A model generated the notes under the pieces. It did no database searches and had not been told where the DNA came from. It was given only the letters and a program-made list of their open reading frames with translations. Positions 28,649 through 62,838 of a DNA stretch of 64,000 nucleotides are shown here, in pieces (position 1 is the first letter of the stretch; the number at the start of each line of letters is the position of its first letter). The position numbers and the translations under genes are program-made. The DNA is taken from assembly GCA_032986305.1 (NCBI GenBank), contig GCA_032986305.1_3672.1; one strand, written 5' to 3'. This DNA is from a phage.

Positions 28649-28882
28649 ATGAAAGTTAAATTTCTTACAGATTTAGGGTACCCTTCCTTGGTTGACTGCA
28701 TTGGTAAAATTGTGGAAGCAAAACGGCTATCTGCAAACGATAATGTTGTCATGGTTAAGGGAAAAGATTTATTAGCTGCAGGTGCAGAGTCTGGCAGGAT
28801 CTCTCCTGACTATACATATTACCTATCTTTAAGTAATCTACCAGAACGAGGTGGCAAAGGCCTTGAAGTTGTGGAGGAGTGA
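28649..28882 (+). CDS. hypothetical protein (small paralog family)
   Basis: MKVKFLTDLGYPS...LLAAGAESG shares motifs with ORFs at 32323 and 32537. Confidence 0.45.
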   Translation: MKVKFLTDLGYPSLVDCIGKIVEAKRLSANDNVVMVKGKDLLAAGAESGRISPDYTYYLSLSNLPERGGKGLEVVEE

Positions 28883-32038: not shown

Positions 32039-32323
32039 ATGAGCAATGGTGTTAGCAATAGTGCTGCAGAGTTTAAAGTGATCTGTGAAGGAACTTATTG
32101 GATAGTGAAACAGAAAGTGTACCTATTCGGTTTCATACCGTTTTGGCAGAGATTTTGCTGGGGAGCTAACGAGCTTAAAAGATACGCCACCAAGTCTATG
32201 GCACTTATTGGTATAGCTGAATACATTGCTGCCAGAGACAGAGAGGGGAAAACTTGTTACTACACTGCTGACGAGATTCGTAACAGTGTTTACGTTCCAC
32301 AGCCGCCCGATGGAGACCGCTGA
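32039..32323 (+). CDS. hypothetical protein
   Basis: RBS AAGGAGAAG; 94 aa. Confidence 0.4.
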   Translation: MSNGVSNSAAEFKVICEGTYWIVKQKVYLFGFIPFWQRFCWGANELKRYATKSMALIGIAEYIAARDREGKTCYYTADEIRNSVYVPQPPDGDR

Positions 32324-32547
32324 TGAAAGTGAAAGTTTTAGATTCAAACTTCTATATTGGTCAAGAGCCTTTAGTTGGAAAAGTGTTTACCGCTATCCCT
32401 AACGAAGATTATCCTGACCTTTTAAAAATAAAAGGGGCAGATCTTATTGCCGCTGGCGCGTCTCAGGAATGCTTTGACAGTCAGTGGGCCTACAACTTTG
32501 CCCTAGGGGAGGATGTGGAGATAGTGGAGGACGATTATGAAGGTTAA
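32323..32547 (+). CDS. hypothetical protein (MKVK paralog)
   Basis: MKVKVLDSNFYIGQ...DLIAAGASQ; paralog of 32537 gene. Confidence 0.5.
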   Translation: MKVKVLDSNFYIGQEPLVGKVFTAIPNEDYPDLLKIKGADLIAAGASQECFDSQWAYNFALGEDVEIVEDDYEG

Positions 32548-32791
32548 AATTCTTGACTCTAACGTCTACTTGGGACAATCATTCCTGAAGGGAAAGGTAG
32601 TACCTGCTGTATACTTCGAAGGGTTGCCGTGGGATGATCCTGTGCGGCAAAATCACAGCTATGTAGGCCACAATGTGGTGTTCATTTTGGGATCAGACCT
32701 GATCGCGGCTGGTGCTCCGGAATATTATTTCGGAGAGGACTCGTATTATGCCTTTGGGGTAGGGTCAGATGCAGATATTTTAGAGCCGTGA
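32537..32791 (+). CDS. hypothetical protein (MKVK paralog)
   Basis: MKVKILDSNVYLGQ...DLIAAGAPE; tandem paralog. Confidence 0.5.
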   Translation: MKVKILDSNVYLGQSFLKGKVVPAVYFEGLPWDDPVRQNHSYVGHNVVFILGSDLIAAGAPEYYFGEDSYYAFGVGSDADILEP

Positions 32792-33202
32792 TTGGGGACT
32801 GTTGTGAAAAATAAACTGTTCAAAGTTACAATGAAAATTCGCGGAGCTTGGAGCGTAAAGCAAGGGCGTATCCCAGAGTTTGAGAAAGACTTCTACGTAG
32901 TCTCCACCTCTAAAGAGGCTGCATGCTGGCAGGCTGGATATGCCTATGCAAGAACCTGGTACGAAGGATACCAGACTGGAGGCTATGACGGAGAAATTGT
33001 CAGCAAGGGTGTGGAAGAAATTAATGTGTTGACAAGTGAAAAAGTTTTTGTTATAGTGCATCCTGATTCCAGAGTGAAGCATTACTGGAATGCCAGAACA
33101 AAAACTTGGACACCGTTTGCAGATTCTGCTACACCACTTTTAAACCAAAAAGCTCTTGACTCTGCCCCGAGCTATGGGGTTGTTGAAGAAAAGCTAGACT
33201 GA
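32792..33202 (+). CDS. hypothetical protein (paralog of 35012 gene)
   Basis: Shares VxHPxSxxxYW...WTP C-terminal motif with 35012..35407; start uncertain (TTG/GTG/ATG). Confidence 0.4.
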   Translation: MGTVVKNKLFKVTMKIRGAWSVKQGRIPEFEKDFYVVSTSKEAACWQAGYAYARTWYEGYQTGGYDGEIVSKGVEEINVLTSEKVFVIVHPDSRVKHYWNARTKTWTPFADSATPLLNQKALDSAPSYGVVEEKLD

Positions 33203-33219
33203 AACAGTGAGGTGCCACT

Positions 33220-33510
33220 ATGATGGATTTAGTTCTGAATATTGATAACGCAGGAGAGGTTAAAGACGATGGTGTAACAAGCATGGACCAACCATGCCCT
33301 GCCAAGATTGACTCAAAATGGACATATAAGTTTGACGGAGAGATCTTTGCAAATGATGAAAAGGTTGTAGATGCTGCAGCCATTTTGAACGCTCTAGGGT
33401 ACGACCCTGTGAATTCTTTGATCAAGGATCCTGTTGAGTTTGCAGAGTATGTTCGAAAAATGGCAGATCTTGCTGTAGATATTTTAGATACTATCGACAA
33501 CAATCTGTAA
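33220..33510 (+). CDS. hypothetical acidic protein
   Basis: 96 aa after RBS GAGGTG. Confidence 0.4.
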   Translation: MMDLVLNIDNAGEVKDDGVTSMDQPCPAKIDSKWTYKFDGEIFANDEKVVDAAAILNALGYDPVNSLIKDPVEFAEYVRKMADLAVDILDTIDNNL

Positions 33511-33516
33511 AAACTG

Positions 33517-33545
33517 TTGACACAACGCTTCAGCTATAGTATTAT
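33517..33545 (+). promoter_or_regulatory. sigma70-like promoter upstream of HPF homolog
   Basis: TTGACA - 17 nt - TATTAT. Confidence 0.5.
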
Positions 33546-33592
33546 TGTTTTCAAAGAGGGTTTGGTTCCCTCTTCTTTAAAAGGAGCACGTT

Positions 33593-33910
33593 ATGCAAAT
33601 TGAAATCACTGGCAACGTAGAAATCACTGAAGGCATGGTGTCTTTCATTTCCCACAAAATGTCAAAACTGGAGCGTCTACATCCTTCTGTAAATCATGCA
33701 CGTGTAAGTGTAAAAGTTGAAAATGACCACCAGGAAGTTATGGCGTTCATTTTTGACAATTCTGGAAAAGAAGTTATTGCCAAAGCTAAAGGTAGTGATG
33801 CTTACGAGGCAACTGACCGTATGGTAGATGTTGCAGCACGTCAGCTGGCTAAGTGCGGTGGAAAGAAAGGTAAGGGGAAAGGCAAAGTAAAGATTGACTT
33901 TGGAGAATGA
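33593..33910 (+). CDS. ribosome hibernation promoting factor homolog (HPF/RaiA, S30AE family)
   Basis: MQIEITGNVEITEGM...KLERL...VSVKVE...GSDAYEATDRMVDVAARQLAK aligns along length with recalled E. coli HPF. Confidence 0.7.
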   Translation: MQIEITGNVEITEGMVSFISHKMSKLERLHPSVNHARVSVKVENDHQEVMAFIFDNSGKEVIAKAKGSDAYEATDRMVDVAARQLAKCGGKKGKGKGKVKIDFGE

Positions 33911-34047
33911 GGTGCTATAATGGGAGTGATTAAGAAATTAGTCCCAAATGTAGAGATTGCATGCTTTGAAATTATGTTTGCAATCGCAGTTGTAGTTAAT
34001 GTGTTAGGTTACGGCTATTAATATCAAATAATTGAGGAGACCTCTAA

Positions 34048-34317
34048 ATGAAAATTAAATTATTCAAAACTGAGCTGGCAGACAAAAACTGTGGACTGGT
34101 TGAAGGCATGATTGTTGAAGCACAACCAGTGGACTATATGAAGGTGGTTCGTGATGCACTGGGTGAAGGCTTTGATCTGATGGAGCCAGCTCTGCGAGAA
34201 GATGTTATCGAGATGGCTAAAAAGCACACACCTGAAGGCTTGGTGGTGTTTGTTGCACCAGGTAACGGAGAAGAGTTGATTGTAACTCCTGATGTGTATG
34301 AGATTGTAGAAGGGTAA
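34048..34317 (+). CDS. hypothetical protein (small paralog family)
   Basis: MKIKLFKTEL..., RBS GAGGAGA. Confidence 0.45.
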   Translation: MKIKLFKTELADKNCGLVEGMIVEAQPVDYMKVVRDALGEGFDLMEPALREDVIEMAKKHTPEGLVVFVAPGNGEELIVTPDVYEIVEG

Positions 34318-34411
34318 TCCTGCTTGGATTAGCATACTCCCTCAATAAAAAGAAAAGTTTGTAATTATTTGTGGGAAAGGAATCCCCATCTCTTGCCAGA
34401 GGTGATACTAT

Positions 34412-34675
34412 ATGATTGTTTATTTTAAAACTTCAGGTGGATACCCTGATTCTCAAAGCTTGATCGGAAAAACGTGCACAGCATACTCACCTCTTGATGA
34501 GGAGGTAAGCGATATCCTACGAGATATGTATCGGATTGATCCCCAAGAAGCTTTTGATCAAAACCTTGTATTTGTCAAGGGCTCAGACATGAAGTCTTTG
34601 GGAGCATTTCCTGAAGCAGATGATGATGCCGTTTATTCGTTCATGACCCCTTTTGAAGCTATGGTTGTTGGGTGA
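34412..34675 (+). CDS. hypothetical protein (small paralog family)
   Basis: 87 aa, acidic. Confidence 0.4.
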   Translation: MIVYFKTSGGYPDSQSLIGKTCTAYSPLDEEVSDILRDMYRIDPQEAFDQNLVFVKGSDMKSLGAFPEADDDAVYSFMTPFEAMVVG

Positions 34676-34679
34676 GAAT

Positions 34680-35012
34680 ATGAAAGTACGATTTATTGGT
34701 GAAACAATTCCTGTGCATCTCCGGTCTCCTGAAGATTCTGCAGATCTTGCATCTCAGAAGGCGAGAGGTTATGATAAGAAAGTAATCTCAACCGATGTAG
34801 AACTTGAGGCTACTAGTTTACCTGACCCTGCTGCATTCTTTAATCATTATGGATACTATTTCAGCAATCTTATGAATATCGGTGAGCTTGTGTTTATTAG
34901 TGGTGGAGAAATTGTTAGCAAGCTTGGCGGCGATCCGGATATCTTTCATGAAACCTGTCCTTTTGCATTTGTGGTGGGTTCAGATGTGGAAGTTATTGAG
35001 GAGGTGCGGTAA
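34680..35012 (+). CDS. hypothetical protein (small paralog family)
   Basis: MKVRFIGET...; ends ATGA-type overlap at 35012. Confidence 0.4.
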   Translation: MKVRFIGETIPVHLRSPEDSADLASQKARGYDKKVISTDVELEATSLPDPAAFFNHYGYYFSNLMNIGELVFISGGEIVSKLGGDPDIFHETCPFAFVVGSDVEVIEEVR

Positions 35013-35407
35013 TGGTAAGCCTATACCGTGTTGAGTATAGCTCAGATACTGTATACAACGTAAGAAGCAAAGATCGCAGCGACAGAGTGCAAGAAATGTA
35101 TGTTCTTGCCGACAGTCCGTTATCTGCAGCGTTCAAGGCAGGGGCTCTTGCATCTCGTTGGAAATTTGAAGGCGGATCTTTCTATGAAGAAACCCTTGAA
35201 GATTCTGTTGTTATTTCTTCTGTAGAGGTTTCAGATGACTACGAAGGGAAAAAGTTCGTAATGCGGCACCCACACAGCAACATTGCGTACTACTGGGATG
35301 TTCTGAACAACGAGTGGACCCCAGATCTTCAGAAGGCTACTGTGCTAACACCGTTTTTGGCAGATAAGTTTCCACCAGAAGGTAATTTATCCGCACTGTT
35401 TCAGTAA
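35012..35407 (+). CDS. hypothetical protein (paralog of 32792 gene)
   Basis: MRHPHSNIAYYWDVLNNEWTP matches VIVHPDSRVKHYWNARTKTWTP. Confidence 0.45.
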   Translation: MVSLYRVEYSSDTVYNVRSKDRSDRVQEMYVLADSPLSAAFKAGALASRWKFEGGSFYEETLEDSVVISSVEVSDDYEGKKFVMRHPHSNIAYYWDVLNNEWTPDLQKATVLTPFLADKFPPEGNLSALFQ

Positions 35408-39403: not shown

Positions 39404-40985
39404 CACACAATTAGCTGCCCGGCTAAAGTGCTGGAAGCACCTATAACACATCTTTCAACTAAATTTCCCACCACCACAATCACTTACCTCCCACACATGA
39501 CTGTTTGCTTGTTTAGTGAGCAGTCATGCCTTGACATTCTTGCCTATCCTGATAAAATTAAGTTCTTCTCTTTTCTTTTACCGAGTAATTCGGGTTTTCT
39601 GTTCTCTTCGGTTTGAAGAGGTATGGAGATACACCTGAGTGAACAGGGTGAACAACCGAACCATTGGCTATGGCATTAGCATGGCGAAGCGGACGGGTGA
39701 CGAAAGAGGGGCCGGAGGACACCAGTCACTGCCATATGATATACGGGTGATAACCTGAAGAGTCTGAATAAGTGTTTAAGTACCAGTCAGAGGAAAAGGT
39801 GAATGGTAGCCGAAGGGGGAGGGGGGTTTCTTGTATCTTTAATTTGTATATTATGTATACACTTGTAAACCAATCTCATCTGAATCTGTTTACTACACAA
39901 AGCTGATAGGGACAAATATTACCTATTAAACTTGAATTATTTATAGAAAATACCACAACACAACTTAAGTCTTTGATTTTACACACAAATCCTGCAGATA
40001 TTCACCCTCCATATTTAACATACTTGTAACATATTCCATACTCTACCTACCTGATCAATTTACCCACCAACATCCTCCATATTTTCCCTGTCTGTACCAC
40101 CCCTGCCCCGCCGGGAGTCCCGTCATATCTGGCTTTCCAGCAAATATCACACCCACAAATATCATTGCCTGAAGAGGATTTCATCTCATAATACATGCCT
40201 TGCCTGAAGAGCGCTTCATACACCACGTAAATTTTTTAATTGACCCCCTCCCCGCCGCCGGAGAGGTTGGCTTTTCCCACACAGACCTGAAGAGTCAGCC
40301 AGAAATATCTGAATGGACCCAATTCTGCCCTGTTATGAGCCGTAGCTACTGGAGTGCTGCCAGGCGGACGAAATGGGAATACTTCTCATTCTTATAACAA
40401 TTCTCAAATATCAAGGCAGTGAGTCAAATTAATAGGCGAGGCCGTTCACACAGTGGCACAACATTTGCAACCTATCTTGTGGGGGTGAATGAGAATACCT
40501 ATCATTGTGAGAATAGTTATCATTACGGGCAATTTAACATAATACCCATTATGCGCACCACTGGCGATACATACAGGGATTGATAACATGAGTTACTGTT
40601 TACGCATATAACAATTATATTTCTTACTATTTGTGTGGGATATAGTTAGCAGCCAATAGATTAGATATTGACCTGTAGACTTCCAACCGTCTAGACGTCT
40701 AAACGCCCACACAGCAAGGGTTATACATACACTTCTGAATGTAAACAGGGCCGCAAAAATGCTACCATACCAGTTTGTAAATTTTTCATGCAGCACTTGA
40801 CAAAGAGGAGAAAAACTTGTCTGACACTTTAGACACAATAGTGACATACTATGACACCTTTGACACTTTTGCATACCTGATTGTTTGCATGTCTAATAGT
40901 TTACATGGATAACTGTTCACATACTTATCATTTACATGATTGACTGTTTACACAAATATGATAAGCCATGACATTCGTTTGCATG

Positions 40986-41045
40986 AAAACAATTAACAAG
41001 ATAACAATTGACAAGCTAACAGCCAACAAGCTGACAATTAACAGG
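40986..41045. repeat. four tandem 15-bp iteron-like direct repeats
   Basis: AACAATTAACAAG / ATAACAATTGACAAG / CTAACAGCCAACAAG / CTGACAATTAACAGG. Confidence 0.6.
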
Positions 41046-41056
41046 TTAATAATATA

Positions 41057-41229
41057 TGACATAATATAAAAGCAGGGCAACTATTAGCAGATCTATAGTT
41101 GCCTTGCTTGTTATGTCATGATTAACTAAATACAAGGCAACTATGATCTGATTAATAGTTTGCAGACAAACTATCACGGGGGTGATTGTTACTGCTTTTA
41201 TATTATGTCGCGACTCCGTCGCGACATGT
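41057..41229. repeat. nested inverted repeats (cruciform-capable locus)
   Basis: 19-bp arms TGACATAATATAAAAGCAG and CTGCTTTTATATTATGTCA; inner hairpin GGCAACTAT...ATAGTTGCC; 10-bp palindrome ATGTCGCGAC..GTCGCGACAT. Confidence 0.6.
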
Positions 41230-41854
41230 CATTCGTTTGCATAGTTGCCTTATTGTTACGGATAAAATAATTGTATTGTTAATTATTTCTTATCTTTCTC
41301 TTAGTCATCTAATGATTCCAGTCAGTATAGTAATGTACAGTAAACATTAGACGACTAAATATTTCTCTGATTATAGTAACCTATCGTGACAATTTCGGAC
41401 TGTTTACGAAAAATGTTGACACCTGGGCAGGTTTATGTTATGCAGTTTGTACGAATAATTATTTTATACAGGTATTGACTATTCCGTTATTCTGTGGTTG
41501 GAATAAATACTTTGCAGGCTATAGAATGATGTTCGTACGTGAATTCTGAGATCTGTCGGCTATAGTTACACCCGATTTTTCACGTAGGACACGCTTTTTG
41601 GTTTGTGTAAGTGTATGACTTATAAGGGTTTTTAATTGTTGACAGTATGCTGAAAATGTGCATCAGGTTAAATTTTGTGCAATAGCTGCATTACGTGCGT
41701 TTTTGGAAGGAAAAACGTGTAAAAATGACCCTGCTACCACAAGATGAAAGATTATGCAATAGTTATTTTATATGTATATTTGTACAGTGTGCGGGATTAA
41801 TGGCTCGTCAATTATTCCACTTGCCAGGTAGGGCCGTTTATGGTAGGAAAAGAG

Positions 41855-41883
41855 CAAACAAAAAGAAAGGGGCCTAAGCCCCT
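41855..41883 (-). terminator. intrinsic terminator for leftward gene block
   Basis: AGGGGC-cuaa-GCCCCU hairpin; on minus strand followed by UUCUUUUUGUUUG. Confidence 0.6.
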
Positions 41884-41895
41884 TGATAATGTTTA

Positions 41896-42243
41896 TTATT
41901 TGTTTCTCATCCAGCTTTCCCAAGCTGCCTGATAATCTGCCTCACTGCGGCGGATCTCTTCTTGCTCTTCAAGCCGGATCTCTTCTTCCAGGTACCCCAG
42001 GATATCAGCCTTTTTGGTCTGGCGTAACATCCAATCATCTTTTTTACGAGTAAAGATCTTGTACGCTTTCTCGCAAACCTCCTTTTTACTACCTTTTTGG
42101 ACTTCAATAACTTTGTAGGCCATGTACTGAACTAGTTTGAGCTGATCAAGGCGTTTCATGATGTTTTCCTCTTTATGGGGTTCTGGTTTGGTGGGCCTTT
42201 TGGCCCGTGTCATTATCTTATTACTTACGGCGGCAAAATTCAA
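41896..42243 (-). CDS. hypothetical protein
   Basis: 115 aa, basic/charged. Confidence 0.45.
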   Translation of the reverse strand: MNFAAVSNKIMTRAKRPTKPEPHKEENIMKRLDQLKLVQYMAYKVIEVQKGSKKEVCEKAYKIFTRKKDDWMLRQTKKADILGYLEEEIRLEEQEEIRRSEADYQAAWESWMRNK

Positions 42244-57638: not shown

Positions 57639-58002
57639 TCATCAGGTCTGCCATAGCGTCACCTACGAAGAGAACAACCACATCGTTGACAGCGTCAGCA
57701 TCATCTTTATTGACGTTGCTGAATTTAGGACACACCGCAATGATCATATAGACACCGTTACCAACCTGAACTGTCCGTGTGGTGCACATCATGGCGGTAT
57801 TTGTGCCTTCTTTGAAGGCGAAGCCTTGAAGACGCTCCTCTAAAGTGTTACCGGTAGATTTCAGAAGCGCCAGCTCGTCCAAGGCATAGATGATATCTCC
57901 GGAAGTTAGTGTTGCCTTGCCATCAGACACCATAATAACTCCATCAGCACCGTCAAGCTTAGAGGCTTCAAAGATATCAATATCCCAAATATTTTTCATC
58001 AC
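57610..58002 (-). CDS. hypothetical protein
   Basis: 130 aa ORF. Confidence 0.4.
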   Translation of the reverse strand: MMKNIWDIDIFEASKLDGADGVIMVSDGKATLTSGDIIYALDELALLKSTGNTLEERLQGFAFKEGTNTAMMCTTRTVQVGNGVYMIIAVCPKFSNVNKDDADAVNDVVVLFVGDAMADLMNAGEAANED

Positions 58003-58319
58003 GCTTCCTCGTCGTCTAAAGAGTTGAAGATTTCACCGAAGTATTCTAAGACTTCTAGCTCCCGTGTGGTGCAGAAAACACAGTCACCGTTGTCATCCTC
58101 GATAACGGCCTCTTTACCCAGCACATCTACTTCAAGTTTATCGTTCAACAGGACAGCCCCTGTGTAAACTTTGTCGGCTGTGCAGTCCCGAAAAGCAGAG
58201 TCTTTCTCCAGATAGTCTGGCTTAACCTTGGCTTTAATTCGTTGGTATTGTTTGGTCATTGCTGTGGTCCCCTTTCGTTTTGATAGGGCCATTATATTAG
58301 GCCCCATCACTGTTGTCAA
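57999..58319 (-). CDS. hypothetical protein (paralog of 58323 gene)
   Basis: KPDYLEKDSAFRDCTADKVY...DDNGDCVFCTT parallels 58323 product. Confidence 0.4.
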   Translation of the reverse strand: MTTVMGPNIMALSKRKGTTAMTKQYQRIKAKVKPDYLEKDSAFRDCTADKVYTGAVLLNDKLEVDVLGKEAVIEDDNGDCVFCTTRELEVLEYFGEIFNSLDDEEA

Positions 58320-58322
58320 GTA

Positions 58323-58577
58323 TTAATGTTCAGGTTTTACAAAAACTACTTCATTAACAGTGCACCAGACAGAGTCTCCTTCATCATCTTTAAAGGTAAG
58401 GCACTGTGCTGAGTTTTCCAGCTCATCAATCTCTTCTTGTGATAAAGGGGCCCCTTCTTCCAAAAGGGCTTTTACCAAAGGGTTCTCACAAAACTCTGCT
58501 TCATAAATAGTGCCAAGTGTGCAATCTTTAAAAGCTCGGTCGTTTGCAACGCATTCTGGTTTCAACATGATTTTCAT
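58323..58577 (-). CDS. hypothetical protein (paralog of 57999 gene)
   Basis: KPECVANDRAFKDCTLGTIY...DDEGDSVWCTV. Confidence 0.4.
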   Translation of the reverse strand: MKIMLKPECVANDRAFKDCTLGTIYEAEFCENPLVKALLEEGAPLSQEEIDELENSAQCLTFKDDEGDSVWCTVNEVVFVKPEH

Positions 58578-59784: not shown

Positions 59785-60138
59785 TTAGTGACAATCACCC
59801 CAGTTACGACCACACAAGTATTCACCTGTGATCTGGAACGGGACTCCCATCATTTTAGAAGCTTGCCAGAAGCAATGCACCACCATTTCACCCACAGGGC
59901 TCCAGATAAGTTCAAGCTTTCCGTCATCGTTCAGGATAGGATCGTACACCGTGTTTCCGTCTCTGTCAACCACCTCGTTTCCGTTTTCATCCTTGCGTGC
60001 CTTTTTGTACTTATGACCGTCGAACACATGAAGTTTGGCTTCCTGCTCTGCCTTAAATGCTTCCAGTTCTTCAATTGTGTCGAAGGTGTACACAGTCTTA
60101 TACTTAGGTGTGTCAGGGACCTGAAGTTGGTACTCATC
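59785..60138 (-). CDS. DNA polymerase (family A, T7 gp5-like), exon 2
   Basis: Begins at motif C (H)DEYQLQV; ends ...GRNWGDCH resembling recalled T7 gp5 C-terminus GPNWAICH. Confidence 0.6.
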   Translation of the reverse strand, partial: DEYQLQVPDTPKYKTVYTFDTIEELEAFKAEQEAKLHVFDGHKYKKARKDENGNEVVDRDGNTVYDPILNDDGKLELIWSPVGEMVVHCFWQASKMMGVPFQITGEYLCGRNWGDCH

Positions 60139-60414
60139 CAATAGTTCAGGTAGGTCGTTAAGCTACCCCGCACCATTACGTGCATAGCCATACGTTTTCA
60201 CGTAGGATCGGACCATCTCATATTCCTATGATAAGCAACCACAGGAATCCTCCCATTTCGACCGCACTTGCTGGTCTACTTCCTTTCGGAATGGCCTCTG
60301 AGCGTTCGCTCTTTTGAGCGCTTCGTTGCGGATTACCTTGCCATAAGGTTTAGGCTTCCCGCAGTTAAAGAGGTTATTCGACATAGATTACTCTATGAAG
60401 CCACAATGTTATTT
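60139..60414 (-). mobile_element. group I-type intron in DNA polymerase gene (ORF-less, about 276 nt)
   Basis: Separates ...IIYYH from DEYQLQV at motif C; exon 1 ends in U, intron ends in G. Confidence 0.5.
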
Positions 60415-62838
60415 ATGGTAATAAATAATACGACGAACACCTTCATCGTACCACCCACGCTTCACCATTTGGTGGTGCATGAGTATCCCAACTAAGTCAC
60501 ACAGCGATGCACCACCATTCTGTTGGTATGCATTAAGTAAAGAGTGTTTAGATCGGGTCCAGATGGCATGACCATCAAAAGAGTAGATAAACTTCTTACC
60601 CGTTGCTTCCCAGAATTTCTCCAGATCCTCTTTACGCCCCTTAAGACCAGGGTTGGCATCCCAAAGTGCATCGATTACCCTTTGTCCCAACTCTGGAGAG
60701 ATGTCCAGCATATCTGCAACTTTATCTTTTTGTGCCCCGTACATAACCCCATACGTGATAGGTTTACCGTCGTTACGGGACACCTCTCTGCCTGCTACTT
60801 TTGTATATGCCTCAGCATTGTTTTGGTGTGCGTCTCCGTTACTTACAACATCGTAATACAGGCCGTTGTCGAACTCAAAGGCACCCCAAGCCCCGATAAG
60901 CTGCTCTAAGTTGGACCCGTCGATACCGATCTCAAAGTATCCTGGAGGAACACCCCACAAGCTACGCATCTCTTTACCCATAACCACTTTAGGAGAGGGT
61001 TTAGGCATGTTTGCACAAATACTGTGTTTCTGTCTGGAAGTGTTTGTTAATCCAGAGCTTTTAGCAGGAAGCTTATGGTCAATCTTCAAGCGTGGGTGAT
61101 TAAGAAGACCAGTATCAACCTTATCCTCCTTGATCGGATCAAGGACCGATCTGCGGTTTCGCAATGATAACCACAAGACGATATCTTTAGCCATCTCTCC
61201 GTTCAATTTTTCAAGATTCGGACATAGGTGTCCAAACGTATCTTTCAGTTGCGGAGAAGTAATAAGTGCCCTAGCTTTTCTACGTATTTTCCTGAATACT
61301 TCCTTTTTAATCCTTTCGGAGTTAGGAAAGCTTCGGAACTTGTGCACAGTTGTCTGGAACTTAGCATCAGTTTTGTTCCAGAAGTTGATAATTAGGTCAC
61401 AATACTCTGACTCCAAAAGCTCGTCCATATATGCATATACTCGTGCATCAACATCTGCATCAGGTAAAGCTTTCTTCTTGCTGTCTTTAGTTACATCCTT
61501 AGTTCTCCACATTGTCGGAAGCCAGCCAGCACTGATCAGGTATCGCTTAATGTCGTCCTGGTTGCTGATTTTCATAGGTATCTTGCAGTCCGGCATTCGC
61601 TTCTGCTGTAGATCACTTATTGCCTGATCCATCAACTCTTTAGGTAAAGGGTGTGGTGTGGAAGTGCCCTTAATATAGCCTCTCAAGAAATCAGCCATCT
61701 TATCGGGGTCTTTGCATCCCATCTCTTCACACCATTTTATCCCCATCTTGCTGACATCTCCTGTAGAGGTAAATGCTCTCTTAGGCGGGGCTTTGAACTC
61801 TAAAGCGCTCATGTCTACAGGATATCCAAGCTTATCTTTTAACCATTTCCAACCATTATTAGAGATTGTCCCGTCTTGGTTAAACGGCTTTTCAGGGAAC
61901 TTGGGCCGCTGAGACATTGACAGCTCTTTTAAAGGCAGTTGTGGTTCAACACGATCAGCGATTTCTTTCATCCACGCATCGCAACGGTCACGTAAAGCAA
62001 TAGCTCCATCTATGTCGAAATATACGCCCTGACGGGCCTGCAGCTCCATCAGGAAGTGCTGCAGCATACCTCGGCGCAATGCGTTCTTCCAGGTGATCTT
62101 CTTGAACCCTTTTGGCTTCTCTTTGGCAGGATCGTACATAAAGTTCTGCATGTCAGATTTGCCGTAGAATACACCTTTTGATTCCGCTACCAGCTCTTTC
62201 CAGAGCAACTCCTGGATGATAACGTCCTCGAATACACGATCCACATACTTCCACAACGGAAGATCGCGCCAGTCATCAATTTGAACTTTCTGGTTACCAA
62301 GGGCGTAGCCCCATGCCATAAGGCCGTGAGGACCAACAGGCTGCATTTTCTTAGTAACCGGGTTGAATACAGCGTCCGGACAACCTTTTGGTAAAGGGCG
62401 ATCAGGCCACAAGATTCGGCTCATCGCCAACGTATCAAACAGGTTAACCTGGTGGTCGTTGATAGTCCCCATACATTTAGGATCACGGAACATATCAAAA
62501 TGAATACCGGATAATCTCTCCATCAGCATAAAGTCATAACTATAGCAGTTATGGCAGTTCAAAGCTGTTGGTGACCAGTCGGAATTGCCTGTAAGCCAAC
62601 CTTCCAACTCCGAAAAATCTGCTATGCGAACTTCAAAATCTTTATAAAGAGCTTTCTTTGCCAGAATAAAGTTCTTAGCCTTCTCTATATCCTCCTCGGA
62701 GTAGTGTGTGCGGTCATTTAGAGGGAGGAACAGCATAAAACGGTTCTTATTCAGCTCTTTAAACAGGCCGCAGTGATAATAAAGATCTGGGTCTTCCAAA
62801 AGCCCGGAGGCCTCAAAATCGAAGCTATACATGCTCAT
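60415..62838 (-). CDS. DNA polymerase (family A, T7 gp5-like), exon 1
   Basis: N-terminal exo FDFEASGLLEDPDLYYHCG like T7 VSDIEANALLESVTKFHCG; motif A GIDGSNLEQL; motif B RNDGKPITYGVMYG. Confidence 0.8.

Follow-up and report, generated by a model that had tools for sequence, protein, structure and literature searches.

What does a bacteriophage gain from carrying a gene of the ribosome hibernation factor family? We addressed this question for one such gene (hereafter the HPF gene), found in a 64,000-nucleotide stretch of phage DNA that is called the window below. The window comes from a phage of the genus Vequintavirus (rV5-like myoviruses): a 2.5-kb region surrounding the HPF gene matches 119 phage records at 90-99% identity, nearly all of them Escherichia Vequintavirus. 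The features of the locus are listed in Table 1, together with small paralogous ORFs of the surrounding regions.

Table 1. Features of the HPF locus and paralogous small ORFs, in window coordinates.
Feature	Position	Strand	Details
Predicted sigma70-type promoter, equivalent of rV5 P144	33517..33545	+	TTGACA (33517-33522), 17-nt spacer, TATTAT (33540-33545)
Possible 5'-terminal transcript stem-loop, weak feature	33554..33574	+	7-bp stem AAGAGGG/CCCUCUU
Shine-Dalgarno AAGGAG	33581..33586	+	6 nt 5' of the HPF-gene ATG; read from sequence
HPF/RaiA-family CDS, ortholog of rV5 gp144	33593..33910	+	ATG start, 105 aa, coordinates include the stop codon
S30AE core domain, residues 1-88	33593..33856	+	Pfam match and AlphaFold2 model
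Lys/Gly-rich C-terminal tail, residues 89-105, predicted disordered	33857..33907	+	GGKKGKGKGKVKIDFGE
Second predicted sigma70-type promoter	33894..33921	+	TTGACT-16-TG-c-TATAAT, 11/12 plus extended -10
33-aa hydrophobic ORF (rV5 ORF145, 'membrane protein, 1 TMD')	33920..34021	+	
Paralogous ORF family 1	28649-28882, 32323-32547, 32537-32791		
Paralogous ORF family 2	32792-33202, 35012-35407		
Paralogous ORF family 3	57999-58319, 58323-58577		

The product of the gene almost certainly belongs to the HPF/RaiA (S30AE) family. The Pfam model PF02482 (Ribosomal_S30AE) matched residues 3-88 of the 105-aa protein with an E-value of 4.2e-13 and 50.3 bits, against a gathering cutoff of 23.7 bits, and the score with TIGR00741, the NCBIfam model for the HPF/YfiA family, was 49.2 bits, above the cutoff of 40.9. 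The best sequence matches in the PDB were the E. coli HPF entries 2rql, 4v8h and 6h4n (E ~1e-12, residues 1-89), and the PDB sequence matches were HPFs without exception. The significant Pfam hit thus bears out the initial annotation, which had proposed an HPF homolog from the sequence alone. Its further claim that the protein aligns with E. coli HPF along the whole length holds for residues 1-89, which represent 85% of the protein and are 40% identical to E. coli HPF, and fails for the last 16-17 residues: the segment GGKKGKGKGKVKIDFGE has no counterpart in HPF. This segment is indeed the Lys/Gly-rich tail described at the time, with 6 Lys and 6 Gly among the final 17 residues.

Assignment within the family is less direct. 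The gammaproteobacterial short HPF equivalog NF007780 gave 58.3 bits against a cutoff of 125, and the RaiA/YfiA equivalog NF007654 gave 19.2 bits against a cutoff of 158; identity to E. coli RaiA, the sequence of which was checked against the PDB, was 21%. Judged by these sequence comparisons, the phage protein is closer to HPF than to RaiA, yet it is an equivalog of neither. The Pfam scan of the 105 residues gave PF02482 only, and the dimerisation domain of the long HPFs of Firmicutes and Thermus (Ribosom_S30AE_C) was not found. The protein also departs from the short-HPF architecture of about 95 aa that ends soon after helix α2 with KHKxKLKxH, being 105 aa long and carrying KCGGKKGKGKGKVKIDFGE in place of the KHKDKLKQH of E. 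coli HPF. The database (PGAP) name 'ribosome-associated translation inhibitor RaiA' was rejected as not well founded, in view of the low RaiA/YfiA score and identity just given. Two other names found in GenBank records, 'ATP-dependent protease La' for the HPF ORF in several records and 'sigma 54 modulation factor' for the neighboring 89-aa ORF in some, were rejected as annotation slippage.

An AlphaFold2 model, computed with 86 aligned sequences from an alignment of HPFs, has a β-α-β-β-β-α topology and a mean pLDDT of 82.7, with strands at residues 2-7, 33-43, 46-55 and 60-67 and helices at residues 13-29 and 70-92. When the model was compared with the PDB using Foldseek, the top 37 matches were all HPF, RaiA or pY structures, the best being V. 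cholerae and E. coli HPF with rmsd values of 0.9-1.1 Å. In a family alignment of 15 sequences, all invariant or near-invariant columns are kept in the phage protein, namely M1, G7, T12, K22, E43, A63, D69, Y71, D75, Q84 and K87.

The surface that faces the ribosome is conserved in part. In Gram-negative HPF/YfiA proteins, helix α2 makes contacts through K80, R83, K87, K89 and K91, T53 and H/V62 contact m2G966, H/R55 and E60 contact the C-terminus of uS9, and K26 and Q29 lie near m3U1498 (10.1101/2025.10.07.680626). These residues were mapped onto the phage protein through family alignment A1. R83, K87, K91, E60 and K26 (phage K25) are retained, whereas four contacts are replaced (K80V, K89G, T53F at phage F52 and H55F at phage F54), position 62 is Ile and Q29 is changed to Arg. 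About 20 positions that are near-invariant in gammaproteobacterial HPFs differ in the phage protein, including DMYAAID, which reads DAYEATD. Several phage-specific motifs (NVEITEGMV, RLHP, DHQEV and AKAKG-DAYEATD) are common to both phage lineages that carry the gene, and the altered surface therefore looks like adaptation and not decay.

The C-terminal tail evolves differently along its length. AlphaFold2 gave pLDDT values below 50 across residues 91-105. In phages Murica and APECc02, the distal tail is cut short or put out of frame by single-nucleotide indels in the GGGGAAAGG run, so that the proteins are 99 and 101 aa long; a protein from an independent assembly (P0003) carries the APECc02-type tail. 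A relative whose protein is 64% identical also has a basic tail, unrelated in sequence to GGKKGKGKGKVKIDFGE. The second predicted promoter overlaps the last HPF codons and the ATG of the next ORF, its -35 element being formed by the I-D-F codons ATTGACTTT, and this DNA is conserved even in relatives with a frameshifted tail. Since the DNA is kept where the frame is lost, it is probably this promoter, and not protein function, that constrains the extreme C-terminus. The distal tail appears to be dispensable, with selection at the protein level limited to the proximal, Lys-rich part. The 33-aa ORF that follows is probably co-transcribed with the HPF gene from P144; its ATG sits inside the -10 element of the second promoter, so that only the upstream promoter would serve it. 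The second promoter itself appears to serve the next gene, at 34048.

The C-terminal tail of RaiA offers a possible parallel. It is said to occupy the RMF site, to block RMF binding and thereby to prevent dimerisation, a result attributed to Polikanov et al. in 2012. The 17-residue phage tail is predicted to be disordered and is unrelated to it in sequence, and in relatives the distal half of the phage tail varies or is out of frame.

Upstream of the gene, the predicted P144-like promoter agrees with the sigma70 consensus at 11 of 12 positions and 48 nt separate the end of its -10 hexamer from the ATG, in agreement with the near-consensus promoter of its own that had been ascribed to the gene. 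The -35 hexamer TTGACA is unchanged in 9 close relatives and in all 11 loci compared, and the -10 hexamer is either TATTAT or TATCAT; the diverged lineage with the 64%-identical protein keeps TTGACA with an extended -10, TGcAATTAT. With at most one mismatch allowed, we counted 13 copies of the extended AACTGTTGACA motif in the window where 2.0 were expected (6.5-fold enrichment), and none of 100 shuffles reached this count. A stem-loop at the possible 5' end of the transcript was considered as a regulatory element or terminator and rejected. Its folding energy of -9.9 kcal/mol is ordinary (z = -1.1 versus shuffles), it is degraded or different in loci L002 and L008 and missing from L004, and the terminator scan made no call there. 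Given this z-score and the lack of conservation, it is not counted as a supported feature.

We searched for the distribution of the HPF gene among phages. A tblastn search with the HPF protein against 50,697 phage records returned 118 records, all of them Vequintavirus with at least 95% identity, and nothing outside this genus at E ≤ 1e-3. Genus membership was taken as at least 80% identity to the DNA polymerase of the window, a threshold reached by 119 records; the sister genera (Seunavirus, Certrevirus and others) stand at 55-59%. With 118 records against 119 polymerase records, the HPF gene is a hallmark of the whole genus without copies in the sister genera. A 64%-identical copy of 103 aa (P0004) lies at the same position in a diverged relative and was seen in contigs of 126-137 kb. 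Loci L004-L007, from metagenome and Logan contigs of 14-126 kb, represent a diverged Vequintavirus relative that lies outside the phage collection searched and carries a 64%-identical HPF homolog behind its own TTGACA promoter; a 6.3-kb block is syntenic, about 30% of it aligning at 78-82% nucleotide identity. The IMG/VR search yielded 2 close HPF loci only, and a word-based protein search for wider phage relatives recovered only the clade itself. A search started from E. coli HPF matched 130 phage records, of which about 12 fell outside Vequintavirus, mostly as short fragments. Among the GenBank records that match the region 32500-35000 of the window, 18 are labelled 'Campylobacter phage' (MG0656xx; host C. 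jejuni in 16). Their host label is probably wrong, since they are about 96% identical to this E. coli Vequintavirus.

The HPF gene is under strong purifying selection. The nine close copies compared give dN/dS values of 0.03-0.05 at dS values of up to 0.55, and 32 codon columns are polymorphic at synonymous sites only versus 6 with amino-acid changes. In a HMMER scan of 1.8 billion representative proteins, identity to cellular proteins did not exceed 45%, enterobacterial HPFs coming closest; one match of 1160 aa in this search (P0006) was dismissed as a repeat-protein artefact. The gene has a GC content of 41.5%, compared with 42.8% for the window, and a GC3 of 0.34, like the neighboring phage genes. 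From the ceiling of 45% on cellular identity and the phage-like composition, the acquisition of the gene is old, the protein having adapted to the phage over a long period, and the recent transfer from the host that was suggested earlier (PMC6375957) was rejected on the same grounds.

The HPF gene sits in an early-type region of small ORFs. An all-against-all BLASTP search (E ≤ 1e-4) revealed three families of small paralogous ORFs in such regions around it (Table 1). The stretch at about 39600-42200 is poor in ORFs and corresponds to the 2.6-kb 'non-coding' region of the rV5 paper (PMC3606486). Gene orientation appears to change there from + to -. The stretch holds four 15-nt tandem iteron-like repeats (ACAATTAACAAGMTA) at 40989-41053, a perfect 18-nt inverted repeat (41058-41075 / 41192-41209), other inverted repeats and several TTGACA promoter motifs, and it may be a replication origin or regulatory hub.

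The family A DNA polymerase gene (59785-62838, - strand) is split at catalytic motif C by a group I intron (Rfam RF00028, 64.7 bits). The intron spans about 276 nt (~60139-60414); a U precedes its 5' splice site and its last nucleotide is a G. Exon 1 ends with ...RRIIYYH at 60415 and exon 2 begins with DEYQLQV at 60138; the spliced junction aligns with 'awvHDEIQV' of T7 DNA polymerase, and the spliced product would be of about 925 aa. Both rV5 and Salmonella phage PVP-SE1 have this intron, in the latter with a LAGLIDADG endonuclease nearby. The rV5 paper gives the polymerase as 775 aa and mentions introns in the terminase only (PMC3606486), and exon 2 of the rV5 polymerase is annotated as hypothetical ORFs.

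The presence of an HPF gene in rV5-type phages is already known. The rV5 GenBank entry DQ832317 (2006) lists ORF144 as 'sigma 54 modulation factor' with a 'Sigma70-type promoter; P144', and the supplement of the 2013 rV5 paper tabulates ORF144, P144 and the PF02482 match (PMC3606486). Mizuno et al. 2019 (Nat Commun 10:752, PMC6375957; preprint 10.1101/174177) treated the gene as a phage HPF, with homologs in rV5, FV3, JES-2013, typing phage 14 and FFH2 and a divergent one in Cronobacter phage GAP32, and Mathieu et al. 2020 gave it as an auxiliary gene in five rV5-like isolates. New in the present analysis are the genus-wide distribution, the dN/dS values, the old transfer, the fold superposition, the changes in contact residues, the dispensability of the distal tail and the RaiA pattern described below. 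A literature search on expression timing and gene fitness in Vequintavirus returned no transcriptome paper, and a CRISPRi-ART paper that uses phage EdH4 holds no data on the HPF gene.

The protein that was studied experimentally is nearly the same as that of the window. rV5 gp144 (ABI79209; P0001) is 98% identical to it, with two substitutions (V33 and H35 in the window protein, A33 and Y35 in rV5), and its length, tail, promoter P144 and neighbors are alike; the -10 hexamer is TATTAT in the window and TATCAT in rV5. In the single experiment published on it, rV5 HPF was expressed from pBAD24 in E. coli NM522 and was detected by mass spectrometry in the crude extract, including its C-terminal peptide VKIDFGE. 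Neither 70S nor 100S ribosomes were found to contain the protein, and its expression did not alter 100S formation (PMC6375957). The stalling or protection of host ribosomes that the initial annotation had suggested is thus not established. Conversely, the negative result is not decisive, because the ribosomes were prepared through a sucrose cushion with 500 mM NH4Cl from cells harvested at an OD600 of 1 and the 30S fractions were left out (PMC6375957). The authors themselves considered salt stripping, growth phase and a true loss of binding as explanations (PMC6375957).

The supplementary mass spectrometry tables of the same study contain a further observation, on which the paper makes no comment. 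Host RaiA was present in the salt-washed ribosomes of cells expressing phage bS21 (1 peptide) and phage bL12 (2 peptides, 6 spectra), and it is not among the 71 proteins found in the ribosomes of cells expressing rV5 HPF, while the crude extract of the latter cells contains RaiA, HPF and RMF (PMC6375957). These are single, non-quantitative shotgun samples with few spectra, the HPF sample being of somewhat lower depth. HPF and RaiA bind one site and are mutually exclusive (PMC10746276). The absence of RaiA gives a hint in keeping with its displacement by the phage protein in vivo, followed by salt stripping of the latter.

We compared the phage protein with related systems. E. coli short HPF (YhbH, 95 aa; 2RQL, 6H4N, 4V8H) is a single domain to which the predicted phage fold is alike within about 1 Å rmsd. 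The phage protein has one extra residue in the β3-β4 loop, is 10 residues longer, carries the 17-residue Lys/Gly tail and has a pI of 8.7 versus 6.5. HPF converts RMF-induced 90S dimers into stable 100S particles, whereas the rV5 protein had no discernible effect on 100S at OD 1 (PMC6375957). E. coli RaiA (YfiA, protein Y; 113 aa) shares with the phage protein the family, the fold and a C-terminal extension past helix α2, but its tail is unrelated in sequence and has an acidic end; the outcome proposed below, 70S monomers rather than 100S dimers, would be similar. [quoted passage not shown] Phage bS21 and bL12 were incorporated into ribosomes and rV5 HPF was not, and the GAP32 protein represents a separate, more divergent acquisition (PMC6375957).

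How, then, might the phage protein act? We consider it somewhat more likely than not that gp144 competes, through weak binding, with host HPF and RaiA for their site in the decoding channel of vacant host ribosomes, which it would leave as 70S monomers. The gene would be transcribed from the conserved sigma70 promoter and the protein made early in infection. It would then bind vacant host 30S or 70S in the tRNA/mRNA channel and, as the same site is used, exclude host HPF and RaiA. The replacements K80V, K89G, T53F and H55F, together with the flexible poly-Lys/Gly tail that takes the place of the short end of HPF or the tail of RaiA, lead us to expect weaker, salt-labile binding. Ribosomes would stay as 70S monomers rather than enter RMF-dependent 100S dimers, the net effect being that idle ribosomes are occupied or shielded in competition with the tighter hibernation factors of the host; the phage would benefit from ribosome protection or from faster reactivation. 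A more specific proposal, which we hold with low confidence, is that the protein is an anti-hibernation factor, that is, an early mimic so weakly bound that it is easily displaced, which would evict or exclude the tight-binding RaiA and HPF and thereby prevent RMF-dependent 100S formation.

The same evidence bears on three other readings. If the protein were a canonical hibernation factor, it would bind tightly, shut down translation on vacant ribosomes and promote or stabilise 100S particles with RMF, so as to stall host translation or store ribosomes. Short HPFs are its best matches in both sequence and structure, the core motif D69-x-Y71...R83-Q84-L85-x-K87 is retained, and most database names imply this function, as did the initial annotation. 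Such a role is nevertheless improbable: expression in E. coli left the 70S and 100S profiles unchanged and the phage protein was lost from ribosomes under conditions where host RaiA stayed in parallel samples (PMC6375957), the contacts K80, K89, T53 and H55 are gone, the scores lie far below both the HPF and the RaiA equivalog thresholds, and an early block of all ribosomes would presumably also stop phage translation. The S30AE fold might instead have been neofunctionalised, so that it no longer acts at the decoding centre and binds a different RNA or protein of the infected cell, for instance free 30S precursors, phage mRNA, or a component of host defence or a nuclease. This would agree with the absence of rV5 HPF from 70S and 100S ribosomes (PMC6375957), with signatures that are specific to both phage lineages, unlike all cellular HPFs, and are under strong purifying selection, and with a basic tail that is new in a protein at most 45% identical to any cellular one. 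We consider it rather unlikely, however, as the fold and the central 16S contacts are intact (R83 to m4C1402, K87, K91), the gene context suggests no alternative partner, the neighbors being unannotated small ORFs, and the missing RaiA is more easily explained by competition for the same site. As for a dispensable passenger, a host gene captured without any role in infection, it would account for the lack of a known phenotype, for heterologous expression without visible effect (PMC6375957) and for the frameshifted tail variants. The frameshifts are confined to the distal tail, though, and the dN/dS of 0.03-0.05, the 118 records against 119 for the polymerase, the copy in a diverged sister lineage, the conserved promoter and a fully ameliorated composition leave this reading with next to no probability; the selection and conservation data effectively refute it.

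Hibernation factors determine whether idle ribosomes are stored, protected or destroyed. The finding that the HPF gene is a genus hallmark under strong constraint, with an altered ribosome-contact surface and a new basic tail, makes the question of its function sharper. Should the phage protein act as an anti-hibernation factor, the ribosomes of slow-growing or stationary gut E. coli would be kept available for phage mRNAs, the decoding centre would possibly be shielded from ribosome-targeting defence nucleases, and the absence of RaiA from the ribosomes of rV5 HPF-expressing cells would be the first trace of this activity. The virus-borne copy represents a natural experiment on how phages face dormant or slow-growing hosts, which is of relevance to phage therapy directed at stationary-phase E. 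coli.
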